Origin: a virus
Taxonomy: Duplodnaviria > Caudoviricetes
DNA length: 45,941 nt
Strand: one strand, 5' to 3'
IMG/VR virus record: IMGVR_UViG_3300022217_000002
Location: 1 to 45,941 of that record
The notes beneath the pieces are model-generated. The model was not told the origin of the DNA. It searched no databases and was given only the letters and a program-made list of their open reading frames with translations. This document shows positions 278 through 45,941 of this stretch, piece after piece. Each line of letters begins with the position of its first letter. Positions within the stretch are counted from its first letter, which is position 1. A program made the translations under genes and the position numbers.

Positions 278-1534
278 ATGGCCCAGAAGAAGCAGCTCCT
301 TACCAAGCTCTACGCCCGGAACAGCATCTATCAACTCGCATGGAAACCTTTCGGCGGAGAATGGGAATACCGAAGCTTGGGGACTCGAGACCCAGAAAAA
401 GCCAAGCGCGAACGACAAAAGCTCATCGACAACTATGTCCCCGACCGCCGCGACGAAATCGCGATCCTCAAAGCCAAGCTCGCCCGTCTCGAAGGAGAGC
501 AGCTGCGCGAAGAGGCCCAAGCCGCCCTGCATATTGATAACGTCTGGAAGGCGTTCATGGAATCGACAGACACGGAGCCCATTCAGCACGCCACCCTTCA
601 AGGGTATGCCAGCTATTGGAAAGGGAAAACCGGCCTCAAGCCCTTCATGGAGCGCAGGGGTATCGCAACGCTTGCGGATTTTGGGTCCGAAGACGCCGGC
701 GAGTTCATCAAGTACCTTGCTGCCGAAGGCATCGGGAAGGCTACGGCAACCAAGTACCTGACGTTCTTCCGCCGCCTGTGGGACACGATAGCCCCCCGCA
801 TCGAGAATCCCTGGAAGCGCAAGAAAGCACAGGGCTTCGGCGGGAAGGTCGGCAAGAGACCATTCACTCTCGACCATCAGAGCCAGATCATCCACGATAC
901 GGGCCGCTACTTCGAGCATGCGGACTACATGCCGCCGCAAGAGCGGGAGCAAGCGTCCATCGAATACAAGGCGCTGCACATCATCATGGCCTATACCGGG
1001 CTTCGCTTGGTCGATGCCTGCATGTTGACGCTTGAAGAGGTTTTCTTCGGGCGTGGCGTTATCGAACTCGCTCCCCAAAAGACCCGCTTCCGGGGCGACG
1101 ACCCCATGTATGCGAAGATCGGAATCCATCCCGTCCTCGGCGTGGTGCTGCGAACGCTCATGTTGGGGAGGACATCGGGATACTTCCTATGTCACATCGC
1201 ATCAGAGTACCAGCGGGATAAGTCTGCGGTCAGCAAACATATCCAGCAGCAGATCCACACGGCAACGGAACTGGCGTGCTGCGTCAGGGCTCCGGGCCGC
1301 AAGAGGGCCATTGCGGTCTACGGTGCGCATTCGCATCGCAAGGCGCTTTCCGACCGCATGCGCGAAGCCGGGATTGACATCATGGTCCGCTTGCAGATCT
1401 TGGGCCACAAGGACAGCCGCTCGGAAGCGCAGGACTATTCCCACGTCAGCGATCAGGAAGTCAGGGACGCCATCATGAAGTCCATGCCGGATCTTCTAAG
1501 AAACCATTCGGCTTCATCAATTTCACAAATTTAA
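278..1534 (+). CDS. int: Tyrosine recombinase (phage integrase)
   Basis: Catalytic motifs YTGLR, HSHR and LGH...DYSH; SD-like AGAAAGGA upstream; adjacent to attP. Confidence 0.95.
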   Translation: MAQKKQLLTKLYARNSIYQLAWKPFGGEWEYRSLGTRDPEKAKRERQKLIDNYVPDRRDEIAILKAKLARLEGEQLREEAQAALHIDNVWKAFMESTDTEPIQHATLQGYASYWKGKTGLKPFMERRGIATLADFGSEDAGEFIKYLAAEGIGKATATKYLTFFRRLWDTIAPRIENPWKRKKAQGFGGKVGKRPFTLDHQSQIIHDTGRYFEHADYMPPQEREQASIEYKALHIIMAYTGLRLVDACMLTLEEVFFGRGVIELAPQKTRFRGDDPMYAKIGIHPVLGVVLRTLMLGRTSGYFLCHIASEYQRDKSAVSKHIQQQIHTATELACCVRAPGRKRAIAVYGAHSHRKALSDRMREAGIDIMVRLQILGHKDSRSEAQDYSHVSDQEVRDAIMKSMPDLLRNHSASSISQI

Positions 1535-30886: not shown

Positions 30887-31189
30887 ATGGATAATAAAGC
30901 AAAGGGAGATGCGGCGGTAGAAGTAGAACCGAAAGATGTTTGGTGGTGTGAAACCTGCAAAACCAAAGAAGAACTAAGCCGTGATGAGATGATGGAACAC
31001 CTTAGATCAGAACATGGTTTAGACACTAAGAATCTGACGGGGACTCGCTCAATGGTCATGCACATGGATGGAGATACGTGGTTCAGCTATGTGTGGTCGT
31101 GGAAGTTTGAAACCGAAAAAGGTGAAGTTTTTTTACGGAATGAAACGCTACAGCCCCGAGCAATGGATGACATGATGCGATATACCTAA
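30887..31189 (+). CDS. C2H2 zinc-finger-like small protein
   Basis: AAGGAGG SD; CETC...HLRSEH. Confidence 0.7.
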   Translation: MDNKAKGDAAVEVEPKDVWWCETCKTKEELSRDEMMEHLRSEHGLDTKNLTGTRSMVMHMDGDTWFSYVWSWKFETEKGEVFLRNETLQPRAMDDMMRYT

Positions 31190-31250
31190 CGCCACGGATC
31201 AGGGGCGGGTGCCCTTATATCAAATTGATACAAATTGATATGGAGTTGAT

Positions 31251-40715: not shown

Positions 40716-41089
40716 ATAAAAAAAAGAGCGGGAACACCGCAGAGGTCATGATTGCCGTCGGCAACTTTGCAGCCGATCCCAGCCATCAGAACGGGGCCGA
40801 TCTAATCGCCGCCGTGTGCGAGACTCGGGGATTGGATAAGAACAGCCGTATTCGCGTGCTGGACGCCTACATGGGCCAACCCCGCAAGAGAATCAGGTTC
40901 AGCGAAGCCAGGCGGCTCTGCGGGCTGACAGACGCCCGCTCGTGGCATACCCGATGCGAACGCGATCCCCGGTTCCGCGAAGTCACGATTTACAGGGAAA
41001 CCGAAAAGTCACACTACTGCTGGGAAGACGAAGTCATGCGTCTGCTGGCAATGCTTAATCAAGGAGAGCCCATAAATGAAAATCCATAG
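40706..41089 (+). CDS. Possible DNA-binding protein
   Basis: IRFSEARRLCGL wHTH-like C-half. Confidence 0.55.
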   Translation: MSVDKKKSGNTAEVMIAVGNFAADPSHQNGADLIAAVCETRGLDKNSRIRVLDAYMGQPRKRIRFSEARRLCGLTDARSWHTRCERDPRFREVTIYRETEKSHYCWEDEVMRLLAMLNQGEPINENP

Positions 41090-41648
41090 ACAGTCTGCGT
41101 TCCTAACCATGGTCGTGTTGGCCGCTGCGGCCCTTGCAGACCCGCCGCCCATCCCCGAACCGTCTACGAACGGTGGTTTTGCCTCGGCGTTGATGGAAAC
41201 ATTCGATCCGGACGACGCACTGCTTATTATGAGCTATCCCACAAGCCTCTGGCCCGTGGTTGCATCGGCTCGGGCGAACGCGGATCCGATTCCGTTTCCT
41301 CCACCACCCGAGATCTCGGGAATCGTCTATGTCACGAATCCCCCGCCGCGCCGCATGGTGTTCGAGATCGTTCCCCAATACCGCAGAAGCACGAACGAGC
41401 AGTGGCAATGCACGGACATGAGCTTGTTCGCCGTGCTTGAAGGGCCGGGTAGTCGCTTTTACCAGTTGGTTGTCGAAGAGGAAAAAGACGGTCTGGTTTC
41501 CATTGGTTCGCGCTGGCGGGAGTCGATGACCGATACAAACTGGAACTACGGACACATCGCGTTAATCGTCGCGGGCCTAAGCACCAATCTTGAATACAAG
41601 ACTAGCTTTGGAATTGAGTGCCTTGGGGGTTTTAGGGGGGACAGGTAA
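41076..41648 (+). CDS. Secreted Pro-rich hypothetical protein
   Basis: Signal peptide ending AALA-DPPP; AAGGAG SD. Confidence 0.7.
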   Translation: MKIHRQSAFLTMVVLAAAALADPPPIPEPSTNGGFASALMETFDPDDALLIMSYPTSLWPVVASARANADPIPFPPPPEISGIVYVTNPPPRRMVFEIVPQYRRSTNEQWQCTDMSLFAVLEGPGSRFYQLVVEEEKDGLVSIGSRWRESMTDTNWNYGHIALIVAGLSTNLEYKTSFGIECLGGFRGDR

Positions 41649-41686
41649 ACAAGGAGAATGAAAATGGGATTGGATACTACACACGG

Positions 41687-41914
41687 ATGCCACGCGCTGG
41701 TTATCTGCCGGATTCCTCCTTTCGAGTCTCAAAGGGCGGATCAGGAAGAAAGTTCCATTTACTCGGAAAAGATGGACTGTCTTTGTGCGGAGGAATCCTT
41801 CTCTGCAACGATGAGCGCGGGGAAGATTGGGAGAAATTGCCAACAATCCTTAAATGCAAGAAATGCCAAAAGGCAGATAACGGTACGGGTGACCGGCAAG
41901 AAAGGGCTCAATGA
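41687..41914 (+). CDS. Small cassette ORF with Cys/His motifs
   Basis: KFHLL...LCG...CKKC; spans cassette 41700-41881; start uncertain. Confidence 0.5.
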   Translation: MPRAGYLPDSSFRVSKGGSGRKFHLLGKDGLSLCGGILLCNDERGEDWEKLPTILKCKKCQKADNGTGDRQERAQ

Positions 41915-42002
41915 TGAAACGTAAATCGAAGGAATTGCACACGGACGAAGTACACGAAAATGGCGGAGCCTTTTCTTGTACGAGTCCAGCCGCTGGTTCT
42001 GA
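41875..42002 (-). repeat. attC-like site
   Basis: AAC...GCAAGAAAGGGCTC pairs with GAGCCTTTTCTTGT...GTT; the loop holds the next start codon. Confidence 0.75.
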
Positions 42003-42267
42003 TGAAGATCAGCTCGAAAAAACCAAGGAACTATATGCTTATCTCACGGGCGCTGGGTTGCCAGAAGGTGTTACATGCCCAACTCCGAAATTGGATTCAA
42101 ACGTTGCTTTCAGCGTGATTTGGTTTTTGCAGGAAGTCACAGGGGTGCTCCCTGACCACTTCGAGAAATGTTGCGAATGCGACGACATTTTTGACACCCA
42201 CTGCGCGGGTGATTATGACGAAAAAACTGGGGAGCACCGCTGTGATTCCTGCTTGGGCTATTACTGA
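41911..42267 (+). CDS. Cassette ORF with C-terminal zinc finger
   Basis: CCEC...CDSC; starts inside the attC loop. Confidence 0.7.
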   Translation: MMKRKSKELHTDEVHENGGAFSCTSPAAGSDEDQLEKTKELYAYLTGAGLPEGVTCPTPKLDSNVAFSVIWFLQEVTGVLPDHFEKCCECDDIFDTHCAGDYDEKTGEHRCDSCLGYY

Positions 42268-42268
42268 A

Positions 42269-42356
42269 ACAGAACGACGGGCGTGACCTGCGAGGCACAT
42301 AAACTGCAAACGTGAGGACGGGCGTTTTCCTCGTAAGGTCAACGCCTTGGTTGGAG
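42269..42356 (-). repeat. attC-like site
   Basis: Minus strand CTCCAAC-5-CGTTGACC...GGTCACG-6-GTTCTGT, the canonical box layout. Confidence 0.85.
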
Positions 42357-42408
42357 CATGGATTTTGATTTAACAGAAAACACTTGCGAGAATTGAAAGG
42401 AGAATGAA

Positions 42409-42987
42409 ATGGCTCTTGAAGGGTGGAGTGTTAAGAAGGTTGATCGAAGGGAAGTGCGAGACTTCATTGAGAGGTGGCACTATTCTGGCTCGATTAACGG
42501 ATGTATTGCTGATTTTTGCTACGCACTACTTGACAGCGAAGGCAAAATGAAAGGCGCAATGTTTTATGGCAGAATGGCGACGGCGAACCAGTGGAAAAGG
42601 TTCTCTGACAAGCCGGATAACGTGATTGAACTCCGCAGACTGTGCTGCGTGGATGAAACTCCAAGAAACGCGGAAAGCTTTTTTATTGGGAGATCGTTAA
42701 GGCTCCTGAAAAAAGATTGGGGATCGGGAGTTGTGGTTTCATACGCCGACAAAGAATACGGGCATGGTGGAACTATCTACAAGGCCAGCAACTTTGAAAT
42801 GGTTGGAGAAATCAAAGGGGCGCGAGTGATTATGTTTGGAGGGAAGAGATACCACGACAAAACCATCCGCACAAAATATAAAGGAAAGCTCAAGCCTTTC
42901 GCAAAACGGATTAAAGAGGCGCTAGACACAGGAGAGGCGTTTTACAAAACCACAAAGGGTAAATTCACCTATGCGCGTAATATATAG
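42409..42987 (+). CDS. Mom-like (GNAT-fold) DNA modification protein
   Basis: FIERWHYS, IELRRL, PRNAESFFI and VVSYAD...GH.GTIYKASNF motifs. Confidence 0.8.
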   Translation: MALEGWSVKKVDRREVRDFIERWHYSGSINGCIADFCYALLDSEGKMKGAMFYGRMATANQWKRFSDKPDNVIELRRLCCVDETPRNAESFFIGRSLRLLKKDWGSGVVVSYADKEYGHGGTIYKASNFEMVGEIKGARVIMFGGKRYHDKTIRTKYKGKLKPFAKRIKEALDTGEAFYKTTKGKFTYARNI

Positions 42988-43128
42988 ACCCAACGCTGAG
43001 AGTGAGGGTTCCGATGGAAGTTGAACAATGCAGATGCTTTGACGGGGGATGGTGCCCTGTTCACAAGGATCAACCGATTGTGACCGTGACGCGCCTTCCA
43101 TCGGATACCCTCGACTCTTTTGTTGGGC
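42988..43128 (-). repeat. attC-like site (long)
   Basis: GAGAGTGAGGGTTCCGATGGAAG pairs with CTTCCATCGGA(T)ACCCTC(G)ACTCTT, leaving two extrahelical bases. Confidence 0.85.
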
Positions 43129-43210
43129 GTCATGCCGATTGCCCAGCACCAGACAGGGCGTGTCCTGGGGAACTCGACAACCGCATGTGTGCGCGGTGCA
43201 AATGGAAGAC

Positions 43211-43267
43211 GCCCAACAAAATTATGAGCCGCGAGCGTAGCGAGTAGGCTCCATGAACTGGTTGGAT
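43211..43267 (-). repeat. attC-like site (57 bp)
   Basis: Minus strand ATCCAAC-5-CATGGAGC-CTACTCGCTACGCTCGCG-GCTCATA-5-GTTGGGC. Confidence 0.88.
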
Positions 43268-43271
43268 TCAA

Positions 43272-43448
43272 ATGAAGATTGCATTAACAGACCATATGGG
43301 ATGGGCAATAAGGATGGCTGAACAAGATGGACTTAATCCTGTTGAGCTATGCGAGGCCGACTGGATGAAATATAACCGCGTGGGGTACCACACCGCGTGG
43401 GCCTTGTGCCGTTATTATGAGGATGCTCAAAATTATGAAAACCACTGA
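43272..43448 (+). CDS. 58-aa cassette ORF (not in ORF track)
   Basis: Hand-translated MKIALTDHMGWAIRM...; starts just after the attC core. Confidence 0.5.
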   Translation: MKIALTDHMGWAIRMAEQDGLNPVELCEADWMKYNRVGYHTAWALCRYYEDAQNYENH

Positions 43449-43593
43449 TCAGATAAATCATTTCGCAAAGGACCTGAACCGGCTGGTTGATCGCTACGCG
43501 ACGGAGTACGACTTACCTTTGGCGGCGGTGATAGGAACGCTTGAGATTAAGAAACAGGATTTAATCAATGAGCACGATGATGACTCGGAATAA
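43435..43593 (+). CDS. 52-aa cassette ORF (not in ORF track)
   Basis: MKTTDQINHFAKDLNRLVDRYATEYDLPLAAVIGTLEIKKQDL...; stop abuts the attC core. Confidence 0.6.
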   Translation: MKTTDQINHFAKDLNRLVDRYATEYDLPLAAVIGTLEIKKQDLINEHDDDSE

Positions 43594-43667
43594 ATCCAAC
43601 GCTACGGATCAGGGGCGGGTGCCCCAAAAGGAGACTTATGAAACAACCTAAACACGCGACGGGGCAC
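43594..43667 (-). repeat. Partial attC-like site
   Basis: One arm is nearly identical to the arms at 31188 and 44092; GTGCCCC/GGGGCAC stem present, outer partner arm missing. Confidence 0.6.
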
Positions 43668-43838
43668 AGTTGCAAGTTTAAGGATTTCGGCGGTGAAAAG
43701 AAGTGGGTGTGCCCCGGCTGCGGACACAAAATCTCCGATAAGGAGAAGGGGCTTGGCTCTAAATGTTGGCAGGGCTTTGAGTACGAACCTATTTGCACGG
43801 ATAACGCAGAGATGAGACGCGGGAAAGGCGGTGAATGA
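43638..43838 (+). CDS. Small zinc-finger-like cassette ORF
   Basis: AAAGGAG SD in the attC loop; CPGC...CSKC-like spacing (C..C and KCW). Confidence 0.6.
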   Translation: MKQPKHATGHSCKFKDFGGEKKWVCPGCGHKISDKEKGLGSKCWQGFEYEPICTDNAEMRRGKGGE

Positions 43839-43940
43839 AATGAGTGGTGCAACATGTGATACGTTAAGGCGTCTCGGCCGATGCCCGGAAAAAGAAAAGC
43901 GCGAGCCTTTACCCGTCGAATCTCCATCGGCTGGTTCTGT
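43799..43940 (-). repeat. attC-like site
   Basis: AAC..GATGAGA..CGGGAAAGGC pairs with GCCTTTACCCG..TCTC(C)ATC..GTT. Confidence 0.75.
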
Positions 43941-44145
43941 TTCTTCGGTTAGGCAGCAGCTTAACGCTGCAATGATCTCTGAGGCGGTGTTCATAGCCAT
44001 GTGCAGCAAAGAAGGGCTTGAGACCACCGATCAAATCAACGCATGTCGTAGGGTGATTATGAACCTCTGTAATCGGATCGAAAAGAAACAGAACGTCCCG
44101 GATCAGGGGCGGATGCCCGAAAAGGAGACTTATGAAACAAACTGA
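43831..44145 (+). CDS. Cassette ORF
   Basis: Starts in one attC loop and ends in the next. Confidence 0.55.
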   Translation: MNEMSGATCDTLRRLGRCPEKEKREPLPVESPSAGSVSSVRQQLNAAMISEAVFIAMCSKEGLETTDQINACRRVIMNLCNRIEKKQNVPDQGRMPEKETYETN

Positions 44146-44187
44146 AAACGTCGCGGGGCAGCCGTCCTCTGAAGATGCTTGTTCTAA
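44088..44187 (-). repeat. attC-like site
   Basis: AAC..TCAGGGGCGG.TGCCC pairs with GGGCA.CCGTCC(T)CTGA..GTT; SD and ATG in the loop. Confidence 0.75.
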
Positions 44188-44335
44188 ACCAACCATTAAC
44201 GATCTAAAAACGGCTCTATTCGAACTGGAGAGAGAAAGGCTCGTTTCCCAAATGTCAGGTCTTGAAACAGGCTTTGAGCACCCTAACACACAGGCGTTGT
44301 ATAACAGGGTGCTTAAGATAGCTCAAATGGTTTAG
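44132..44335 (+). CDS. Cassette ORF
   Basis: AAAGGAG SD; the TAG stop lies in the next attC core. Confidence 0.65.
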   Translation: MKQTENVAGQPSSEDACSKPTINDLKTALFELERERLVSQMSGLETGFEHPNTQALYNRVLKIAQMV

Positions 44336-44418
44336 AACGACCAGCCTAACCCGCGAGGCTAGAGACGTGGGCATCAAAAGGGGGCGTGGCACTCGTAGGG
44401 TTCAGGCTCTGGTTGTGT
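44332..44418 (-). repeat. attC-like site
   Basis: Minus strand ACACAAC-5-CCTGAACC...GGTTAGG-6-GTTCTAA, the canonical layout. Confidence 0.88.
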
Positions 44419-44486
44419 GGCCCTCTCAAACAAAGGTAAGCCGGAGTGAGGCACGAACTCGGGCTGGTAAAACAGAAACTGGACTT

Positions 44487-45368
44487 ATGATTATGCATGA
44501 ATTGCTTCCTACATTTGAACCAACCGATGCCGATCTTGTGGAGCAGGCTTTGGCCCAACCTCTTGATTTTAAGGTTAAGAACGCAATCGCGATTCTCCAA
44601 CAATTTGAAGGCCGCGCCAAAAAGTTATCTCCTTATGGATTCCATTTGGCGGATTCATTTGGAAAGGACTCTGGTGTGTGTCGAAAACTTCTTCAGCTTG
44701 CAGGTGTTGAATTTGGTGGCTGGCATAACAACACAACGATTGACGCCCCGGAATTGTTGAGATTTGGTAAAGCAATGCATCCAGATACGCAATGGTCGCA
44801 TGTTGGAAAACATATGGTGCTGGATCGTATGCCTGAAAAAGGAAATCCACCGACTCGTTGCGCTCGGTGGTGTTGCGCTGAATACAAAGAGTATGGCGGT
44901 GATGGGAAAGCGAAAGTTATTGGGGTGCGAATTGCTGAAAGCAAACGCCGCGCCGGAATCTGGAAACAGGTTAACGTCAATAAGCGCATGGGGTTGATTA
45001 TTGCTCCGATTGCGTATTGGACAGACAAAGATGTTTGGGATTTTACACACGGTGAAAGCATTCCTTACTCCGAATTATATGACGAGGGGTTTTCGCGTCT
45101 CGGTTGCATTGGGTGCCCACTGTCTGGACCATCTGGGCAGAAGCGAGAATTTGAGCGATGGCCGAAATACGAAAAACTCTGGATGATGGGTTTTGATCGT
45201 ATGTGGAAGCAATGGAAGGGAAGGATAGGGGTTCGATCTGGAACTGAGCGGTTTTGGTATAAGTTTGGTAGCCCTGAAGGGGTTTATGAGTGGTGGAGAT
45301 CGGGGACCGCAGATGGATACAACAACCGGGCGCAGTGCGTTTTTGAGGAGATGATGGAAAATGTGTGA
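44487..45368 (+). CDS. PAPS-reductase family (PP-loop, Fe-S) protein
   Basis: SFGKDS, PPTR..RWCC..YKE, GVRIAES..RA, PIAYW and RLGCIGCP motifs; start uncertain (44487 or 44493). Confidence 0.88.
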   Translation: MIMHELLPTFEPTDADLVEQALAQPLDFKVKNAIAILQQFEGRAKKLSPYGFHLADSFGKDSGVCRKLLQLAGVEFGGWHNNTTIDAPELLRFGKAMHPDTQWSHVGKHMVLDRMPEKGNPPTRCARWCCAEYKEYGGDGKAKVIGVRIAESKRRAGIWKQVNVNKRMGLIIAPIAYWTDKDVWDFTHGESIPYSELYDEGFSRLGCIGCPLSGPSGQKREFERWPKYEKLWMMGFDRMWKQWKGRIGVRSGTERFWYKFGSPEGVYEWWRSGTADGYNNRAQCVFEEMMENV

Positions 45369-45504
45369 AGCGTTGCGCAACCCTGTGCAAGCTGGCCGGA
45401 GGCACGACGGCGAGCGGGTGGTTCCGCTTTCTGTGCTTCTTAGGCCACACAACAGAGTAATAGGTGGAAAACTTTCCGCCATATCAAATATTGAAGGGCA
45501 ATAA

Positions 45505-45681
45505 GTGGAAGAATCAGCTACATGCAAGGCTTGTGGAAACGGCTCATTTCGAGTGACTACTGCGCGAGTTATTTGTACCAAATGCAACCGCTCAACGTGG
45601 TTCGGAAAAGTGAAACCCGGAGAAGAACACCTAGCTGCAAAGGCTGGCGATGTATTCCATCTGATTGATGACAATCATTGA
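45505..45681 (+). CDS. 58-aa zinc-ribbon protein (not in ORF track)
   Basis: GTG start; CKAC...CTKC. Confidence 0.5.
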   Translation: MEESATCKACGNGSFRVTTARVICTKCNRSTWFGKVKPGEEHLAAKAGDVFHLIDDNH

Positions 45682-45814: not shown

Positions 45815-45941
45815 TTAGGAATCCGCCGCTCTGTCCAACTGAGCTACCGGGGTATTTATTAATATATTACACTCCCGCCTAGATATATCCCTGTTTTCCT
45901 AGCGATATCCGACATTGTAATATCTTGGTGTAATTTTCGCT
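45815..45941 (+). repeat. Terminal direct repeat, right copy
   Basis: Identical to 1-127. Confidence 0.95.

Follow-up and report, generated by a model that had tools for sequence, protein, structure and literature searches.

The closest described counterparts of the locus treated here are the phage clusters of attC sites lacking integron-integrases (CALINs) and the sedentary chromosomal integrons of bacteria. Seventeen phage CALINs were reported by Qi 2023 (PMC9892861), and according to the accessible part of that paper the integrase IntI1 recombined five of six of their sites. The stretch analysed in this work, referred to as the window, is the whole 45,941 nucleotides (nt) of IMG/VR record IMGVR_UViG_3300022217_000002, a complete circular temperate phage of the Caudoviricetes, from sediment, with a 127-nt terminal repeat. 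At the end of its plus-strand early region lies an array of eight small cassettes and a bacterial-type attI; intI is absent. Like the published clusters, as described in the accessible part of PMC9892861, it is an attC cluster in an intI-less phage with DNA-modification cargo, here including a Mom-like gene. To these shared features, which in the published clusters extend to the demonstrated use of a bacterial IntI, the window array adds an attI, genes on the attC bottom strand and start codons inside the sites. The phage probably carries an integrase-less integron composed of a host-type attI and eight attC-headed cassettes whose coding strand is the attC bottom strand, with exchange at the 5' AAC of each site, most plausibly by host IntI in trans.

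Sedentary chromosomal integrons, both those of the candidate host order and those of Planctomycetota, resemble the array in attC anatomy, in an extra base that is mostly C, in attI sequence and in the AAC crossover. They differ in that the phage is without intI and places each gene after its own attC on the coding strand rather than before it; phage transcription would also head towards attI, with the newest cassette read last. Another point of comparison is the inverted insertion by top-strand recombination treated in Nivina et al. 2016 (PMC5027507, accessible in part), where a gene likewise faces the attI or promoter side. There, however, the whole cassette including its attC is flipped, a state that the accessible text says has never been observed, while in the phage attC faces attI in the normal way and the reversal concerns the gene alone, relative to its own attC. 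A further likeness is offered by short open reading frames (ORFs) in attI1 and attC that aid translational coupling (PMC8876359, likewise accessible in part), in that recombination sites help to translate neighbouring cassettes. In the phage, by contrast, it is the main gene that begins within the site; it does so on the opposite strand, and its N-terminus is encoded by the arm.

Reversed polarity of gene and attC is not stated in the accessible text of PMC9892861, and it appears in no title or abstract opening across the literature searched, a scope that mostly left out subscription journals. When the bottom strands given in the accessible part of PMC9892861 are mapped to the phage records, TJE1 and P12002L_attC2 are canonical, and both PH101 sites and P12002L_attC1 are reversed. 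Both PH101 sites, which IntI1 recombined in that work, have their published bottom strand on the strand of the coding sequences. By annotation, the published CALINs of PH101 (L325:25900-28000) and MW202573 (L324:2000-3800) are reversed, a property on which the accessible text makes no remark.

In the window, ten plus-strand ORFs (A to J) are separated by seven full hairpin sites (S1 to S4 and S6 to S8) and the half-site S5. Read on the plus strand, the full sites run from AAC to GTT in bottom-strand order: S1 (41879-41998), S2 (42273-42352), S3 (42992-43124), the short S4 (43215-43263), S6 (43803-43936), S7 (44092-44183) and S8 (44336-44414). Half-site S5 (43598-43666), also in bottom-strand order, has a left arm and inner stem like those of S7, with which it has 78 nt in common; the other sites are alike in structure and not in long sequence. 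The anatomy of attC, with R boxes AAC and GTT, spacers of 5-6 nt and L boxes of 7 and 8 nt, the longer with an extrahelical base, is found in seven of the eight sites, S5 being the exception. In 7/7 full sites the 8-nt L box with its extra base forms the right arm on the plus strand. The extra base is C in S1, S4, S6 and S8, A in S2 and G in S3, so that C accounts for 4/7 window sites, and it accounts for 37/56 sites of the host order. The L box pairs over all seven positions in S2, S3, S6 and S8, over six in S4, five in S1 and four in S7.

A strand-aware attC detector built on this anatomy was run first on controls. The Vibrio prophage integron, the Shewanella prophage arrays, TJE1 and a Pirellulaceae integron all came out canonical, with the bottom strand opposite the genes. 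The same detector scores every full site of the window higher when the plus strand is taken as the bottom strand than in the reverse sense (S1 39 against 32.5, S2 34.5 against 25.5, S3 55.5 against 46, S4 27 against 9.5, S6 41.5 against 24.5, S7 35.5 against 30.5, S8 37 against 20.5), and at a cut-off of 34 it makes six calls in the 2.9-kb region, from five sites of which S3 is called on both strands, while 40 shuffles yielded an average of 0.05 calls each. R2, a covariance model made from 50 host-order integron attC sites on the top strand, was run over both strands of the whole 46-kb window and gave five matches at E<=1, all on the minus strand: S2 (35.2 bits), S3 (33.9 bits), S8 (33.3 bits), S7 (19.8 bits) and S4 (15.3 bits, E 0.18). 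The model is lineage-specific, since with default filters it missed the sites of Vibrio, Shewanella, TJE1, PH101 and P12002L. Of the window sites, a Planctomycetota model (R1) clearly found S7 alone, again on the minus strand (19.6 bits). In five of seven sites, judged by eye, a TA step precedes the 8-nt box by 2-4 nt and indicates a second extrahelical T, which R2 matches in S2, S3 and S8. The initial annotation had read the attC order on the minus strand and all ORFs on the plus strand, and the side of the longer L box (7/7), the detector and the R2 matches agree with it. The minimum free energy is lower on the plus strand in 6/7 full sites and the purine fraction is 0.51-0.61, a weak indication given that a coding strand is purine-rich anyway. 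Rfam holds no family for the hairpins and returned two chance matches.

By the definition of a CALIN (at least two attC within 3 kb, intI absent), seven sites in 2.5 kb make the array one, with attI as an unusual addition. Of the parts of a complete integron, attI is present at the array end and intI is absent; where a classical cassette carries its ORF ahead of its own attC on the top strand, all ORFs here lie on the bottom strand. The array is a real and still variable variant of the CALIN type, not a complete integron, that likely works via host IntI.

According to the accessible part of PMC5027507, IntI cuts the bottom strand within AAC. If the plus strand is the bottom strand here, each site would be cut at its left end and would go with the gene that follows it, as part of that gene's cassette. 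Contigs of related phages (X2, X3 and X4) were compared with the window; X1, which may be the same DNA, was not counted, and array parts uncovered in X2 were not used. One X3 contig joins 44091 to 45451, on the phage attI, with 0 differences and only AAC shared, and cassettes I and J are missing as a block. Two X2 pieces, 42992-43217 and 43803-44095, match with 0 differences and correspond to cassettes D and H, AAC to AAC; the majority of X2 piece ends coincide with a left AAC. Three X2 contigs enter at the AAC of S6, pieces of X2 and X4 end at the AAC of S2, and an identical 1.7-kb flank in X2 stops at that same S2 AAC before other letters follow. Among the 16 loose ends listed of 36, seven are no more than 3 bases away from a left AAC, two just past GTT, one at the phage's own third left arm and six elsewhere. 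A second comparison with the relatives' reads gave no further joint. The joints show how strains differ and do not capture an exchange in progress. Across 134 family sites, site similarity is 0.84 where a pair shares its downstream gene (n=39), 0.42 where it shares its upstream gene (n=6) and 0.40 in unrelated pairs (n=8311), and identity breaks at AAC. Counted by gene groups, as pairs are not independent, sites lie within 10 mismatches in 8/13 same-downstream against 1/6 same-upstream groups. Site sequence tracks the downstream gene, not the upstream one.

The array is closed by an attI-like site on the minus strand (45451..45484) with its crossover triplet at 45451-45453. Over 34 positions it has 30 in common with the stretch that separates intI from the first cassette in the integron of genome G407, ending at the same GTT, and the next-best match among 5.7 million positions is 25/34. 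The attI pattern was absent from the viral contigs searched and from 151 genomes of the class, G407 not being among them. Another phage (L163:8200-8561) has a likewise oriented 25/34 match to this attI; ahead of it are a plus-strand ORF stopping on its AAC and a hairpin-like stretch without an R2 score. On the minus strand the attI core recurs upstream of attI as an imperfect direct repeat (45496-45512), which recalls the direct repeats of attI1. A scan for a Pc promoter gave three sigma-70-like matches against 4.7 expected, none of them close to attI.

A candidate host is suggested by attP (1-37 and 45815-45851), which contains the 5' half of tRNA-Arg(CCT) as far as the anticodon loop. This half occurs with at most one mismatch in 18/401 genomes of the phylum of G002, and both exact matches fall in one order, which includes G407. 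G002 is presumably a metagenome-assembled genome of Limisphaerales, and the phylum presumably Verrucomicrobiota. In this candidate host order 15/33 genomes carry an IntI above the cut-off. An intact tRNA-Arg(CCT) stands next to an integrase-like ORF at one locus (L419). Relatives of the cassette DNA were absent from the 33 host-order genomes, no cassette protein was found in the host loci examined, and no phage-type cassette was parked among 49 host cassettes. The 30/34 attI match and the IntI genes of the order make it likely that host IntI acts in trans on the phage cassettes.

A tabulation of ORF against attC orientation, for which the initial annotation had called, was carried out across phage and host arrays, and its proposal of a distinct class of reversed polarity is borne out. 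Judged by the longest ORF between adjacent sites, phage cassettes are 27 bottom-sense, 3 top and 22 unclear (n=52). Genome arrays give 10 top, 2 bottom and 7 unclear (n=19), and host-order integrons 31 top, 5 bottom and 13 unclear (n=49), the five proving on inspection to be gene-less or to have top-strand genes. The viral set was gathered by pattern from reversed sites, and so is not an unbiased survey of phages. An estimated 180 or so viral stretches match one narrow two-arm pattern. Among 124 distinct matches examined, 106 have an AAC, which the pattern does not demand, and 98 have a start codon in the loop. An ATG that opens an ORF lies inside 104/131 viral, 25/140 genome and 10/56 host-order sites. 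Another pattern search yielded 19 loci that were mostly chance matches, three of them fitting the family.

Within the array, five of eight cassettes have their start codon inside the site (S1, S3, S5, S6 and S7); in those of S2, S4 and S8 it lies beyond the site. The earlier statement that all cassette genes start inside attC loops therefore holds for these five and not for the Mom-like gene, ORF E or the PAPS-reductase-like gene (3'-phosphoadenosine 5'-phosphosulfate). ORF B (41911..42267, plus strand, 117-118 aa) starts in S1 at ATG 41911 or 41914, with its Shine-Dalgarno (SD) sequence in the stem. Its homologs that are not in cassettes align only from near residue 35, just past the site, and the first in-frame start after S1 lies further on; the in-site start is thus needed. 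ORF D (43014..43247, plus strand, 77 aa) starts at ATG 43014 in the left stem of S3 and stops in the S4 loop, its cassette spanning 42994-43216. ORF G (43638..43838, plus strand, 66 aa) has its SD and ATG 43638 in S5 and stops in S6, one base ahead of ATG 43840. ORF H (43831..44145, plus strand, 101-104 aa) starts within S6 (GTG 43831 or ATG 43840) and stops in the S7 loop, in a cassette of 43805-44093. ORF I (44132..44335, plus strand, 67 aa), for which a homolog search was empty, has its SD and ATG 44132 in the open loop of S7, and its TAG abuts the S8 AAC. The initial annotation had listed the sites at 41875, 43594, 43799 and 44088 as carrying the next gene's ATG. This is so for S1, S5, S6 and S7, although the one at 43594 is only a half-site, its right L box being absent, and the start in S3 went unlisted. 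The motif AAAAGGAGACTTATGAAACAA, said to recur in two sites, is present at 43626 and 44120.

ORF A (41687..41914, plus strand, 75 aa) runs into the left arm of S1, and its TGA overlaps the starts of ORF B. At its own start lies S0 (41687..41702, plus strand), the remnant right arm of a decayed site, which resembles the S1 right arm. The peptides SPAAGS, SPSAGS and PRAGY attributed to translated arms are all present, the last coming from this remnant, which lies outside the stated range of 41875..44418. Reading from an ATG at 41658, which has a strong SD, also enters this remnant (41658-41702), in a frame other than that of ORF A, possibly marking a decayed or fused distal cassette. The Mom-like DNA modification gene (42409..42987, plus strand; PF25680, phrog_1384) starts at 42409. 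ORFs E (58 aa) and F (52 aa) form one cassette (43272..43593, plus strand) with both starts outside sites, that of ORF E at 43272. The attI-proximal cassette carries the PAPS-reductase-like gene (44493..45368, plus strand; PF01507, weak BrxP match), whose likely start is 44493, the ATG to which residue 43 corresponds and from which its best homolog (L329) aligns. Two related small hairpins, at 44438-44468 and 45389-45419, flank this gene and are possibly decayed sites.

At 26/32 loci of Mom homologs examined no site was found at a detector cut of 33, and R2 found nothing in 12 loci including L157; around PAPS-reductase homologs there were four scattered detector calls in 80 loci, and arrays were absent. 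With so few sites at the homolog loci, neither gene is ordinarily part of a cassette elsewhere. At a lower detector cut, a bottom-order site of different sequence (L157:3944-3989) stands ahead of the Mom homolog of best E-value (74% identity), and an apparent left arm lies downstream of that gene, just past 4576.

A cassette of this design would consist of the C of its own AAC, the hairpin, the gene and the letters up to the AA before the next site. The SD and start codon held in five of eight hairpins would travel with their own gene, and four genes would borrow their stop from the next hairpin, the neighbouring site supplying the stop codons of ORFs A, D, G and H. Adjacent ORFs meet closely, with A stopping on the starts of B, G ending one base before H, and H overlapping I. 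Predicted unpaired probability of the SD is 0.00 for ORF B and 0.01 for ORF D, which are buried, and 0.59 in S5 and 0.71 in S7, which are largely open. Borrowed stops would couple translation, with ribosomes entering the left arm; at S1 and S3 such coupling might be needed to open the stem. From the gene order, the early transcript would run from the oldest cassette to attI, the reverse of a normal integron. Since start codons in the site travel with the gene, shuffling should alter stops and coupling, not N-termini. A lagging-strand advantage (PMC5371416, accessible in part) would fit if the replication origin lies left of the array.

Several observations weigh against this account. S5 is without a right arm and the L box of S7 is imperfect; S4 and S7 fall under the detector's own criteria at the cut-off of 34, although forced scores give the same polarity. 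Judged by folding energy alone, only S3 (z -5.9/-5.6) and the minus strand of S2 (-2.95) reach significance, and 5/7 full sites are unremarkable. Two of the three reversed sites worked in the published assay and P12002L_attC1 failed, according to the accessible part of PMC9892861. The clean joint is single and comes from one contig at depth 4.4, and the X2 joint 43806-45450 contains unknown letters in between. The start codons and coupling are predicted. The host is proposed from a 34-nt tRNA match in a search confined to one phylum, and no relative of the terminase was found in the 33 host-order genomes. There is also a second class of junction: among pairs of sites that are nearly identical but carry unrelated genes, 41/45 diverge 0-3 nt past GTT, and X2 has S4 with new sequence immediately past GTT.

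Homogeneous attC on unrelated genes is normal in chromosomal integrons, according to the accessible part of PMC5027507, so the post-GTT junction can be taken as the general junction of cassette genesis. It re-pairs sites and genes, here giving N-terminal fusions. The initial annotation had placed each start in a neighbouring site and expected shuffling to change N-termini. The joints at the left AAC and the tracking of the downstream gene give each start to its own cassette, but N-termini can still change through the post-GTT junction, with 5/13 gene groups carrying a different site. In X2 relatives, S6-like arms occur with the loop skipped or replaced (43823-43912), and the left arm of S5 is followed by a different right arm (43643); loop-encoded N-termini thus vary within the population.

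The post-GTT junctions, together with the X2 variant of S4 and a GTT phase that is constant in 101/106 in-loop ORFs (partly through the family's shared ancestry), are what would be expected if each site went with its upstream gene, crossover took place at the right GTT and N-termini were routinely swapped, as first proposed. This geometry is highly improbable, given that the extra base is in the right arm in every full site, the left AAC bounds both the clean joint and the pieces of cassette size, and sites follow the downstream gene; top-strand recombination is also some 1000-10000 times rarer (PMC5027507, accessible part). Genes might instead be swapped by homologous recombination between repeats, the hairpins being only shared homology. 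The phage has a RecT-like gene, S5 and S7 share their 78 nt, and homologous exchange inside sites could give the gene groups with a different site. Yet the remaining sites lack long common sequence, the clean joint shares three letters only and identity falls sharply at AAC, so this explanation is quite improbable.

The same cassettes and crossover could be served by another enzyme, either the phage tyrosine integrase or a different non-IntI (Xer-like) recombinase. The prophage tyrosine integrase (278..1534, plus strand; PF00589) lies beside attP and is not an integron integrase. On the circular genome it starts about 730 nt past attI and points away, which is the position of intI in an integron, but the tRNA-Arg attP between the two explains that placement. 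It aligns to IntIA over 45 C-terminal residues only and has no TIGR02249 match (494 bits for the IntIA control), and no IntI-like frame was found in the window. As the attI and the attC style also fit host-order integrons, a non-IntI enzyme is unlikely. Finally, the hairpins may be relics, or translational elements acting at the RNA level only, in an array that no longer recombines. Decayed sites do occur (S0, S5 and the arm at 31188), and the SDs in S1 and S3 are predicted to be buried. Against these stand relatives with the identical 1.7-kb flank that vary in cassette content at AAC, and the lack of an Rfam match, and this possibility is hardly credible. An integrase-less integron of reversed cassettes exchanged at the left AAC, likely by host IntI, accords best with this evidence.

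Elsewhere in the window are genes for a terminase, RecT-like, RusA and DnaD-like proteins besides the tyrosine integrase. GC content is 49% in the array and 56% in the remaining window. An isolated third left arm of the S5/S7 kind, with the right arm absent, lies far from the array at 31188..31214 (plus strand), its AAC overlapped by the TAA of the upstream ORF. Directly upstream of the array, a 190-aa ORF (41076-41648) without a family match has a signal-peptide-like, proline-rich N-terminus.

A bioRxiv preprint (2024.07.02.601686) reportedly describes anti-phage cassettes in integrons. It is a tentative thought that phages maintain a mirror-image cassette pool on the host integrase, in which polarity could be a code that insulates the two sides. 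Cassettes of the host, among them many anti-phage ones, would be antisense and silent at a phage attI, and phage cassettes would be silent in a host integron, while the post-GTT junction might fuse gene bodies in frame to a start-carrying hairpin. If so, these arrays would be a place where cassette genesis can be watched. The cassette design is undescribed in the literature searched and appears common, judging from the viral stretches that fit one narrow pattern. With its sites, host-matched attI, candidate cognate integrases and natural junctions, this genome offers a compact test case. It would mean that phages exploit the integron integrases of their hosts, as parasites, to reshuffle accessory genes of their own, here including DNA-modification genes. 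It also bears on the uniform direction of cassette genes and on the way in which a gene comes to be joined to an attC.

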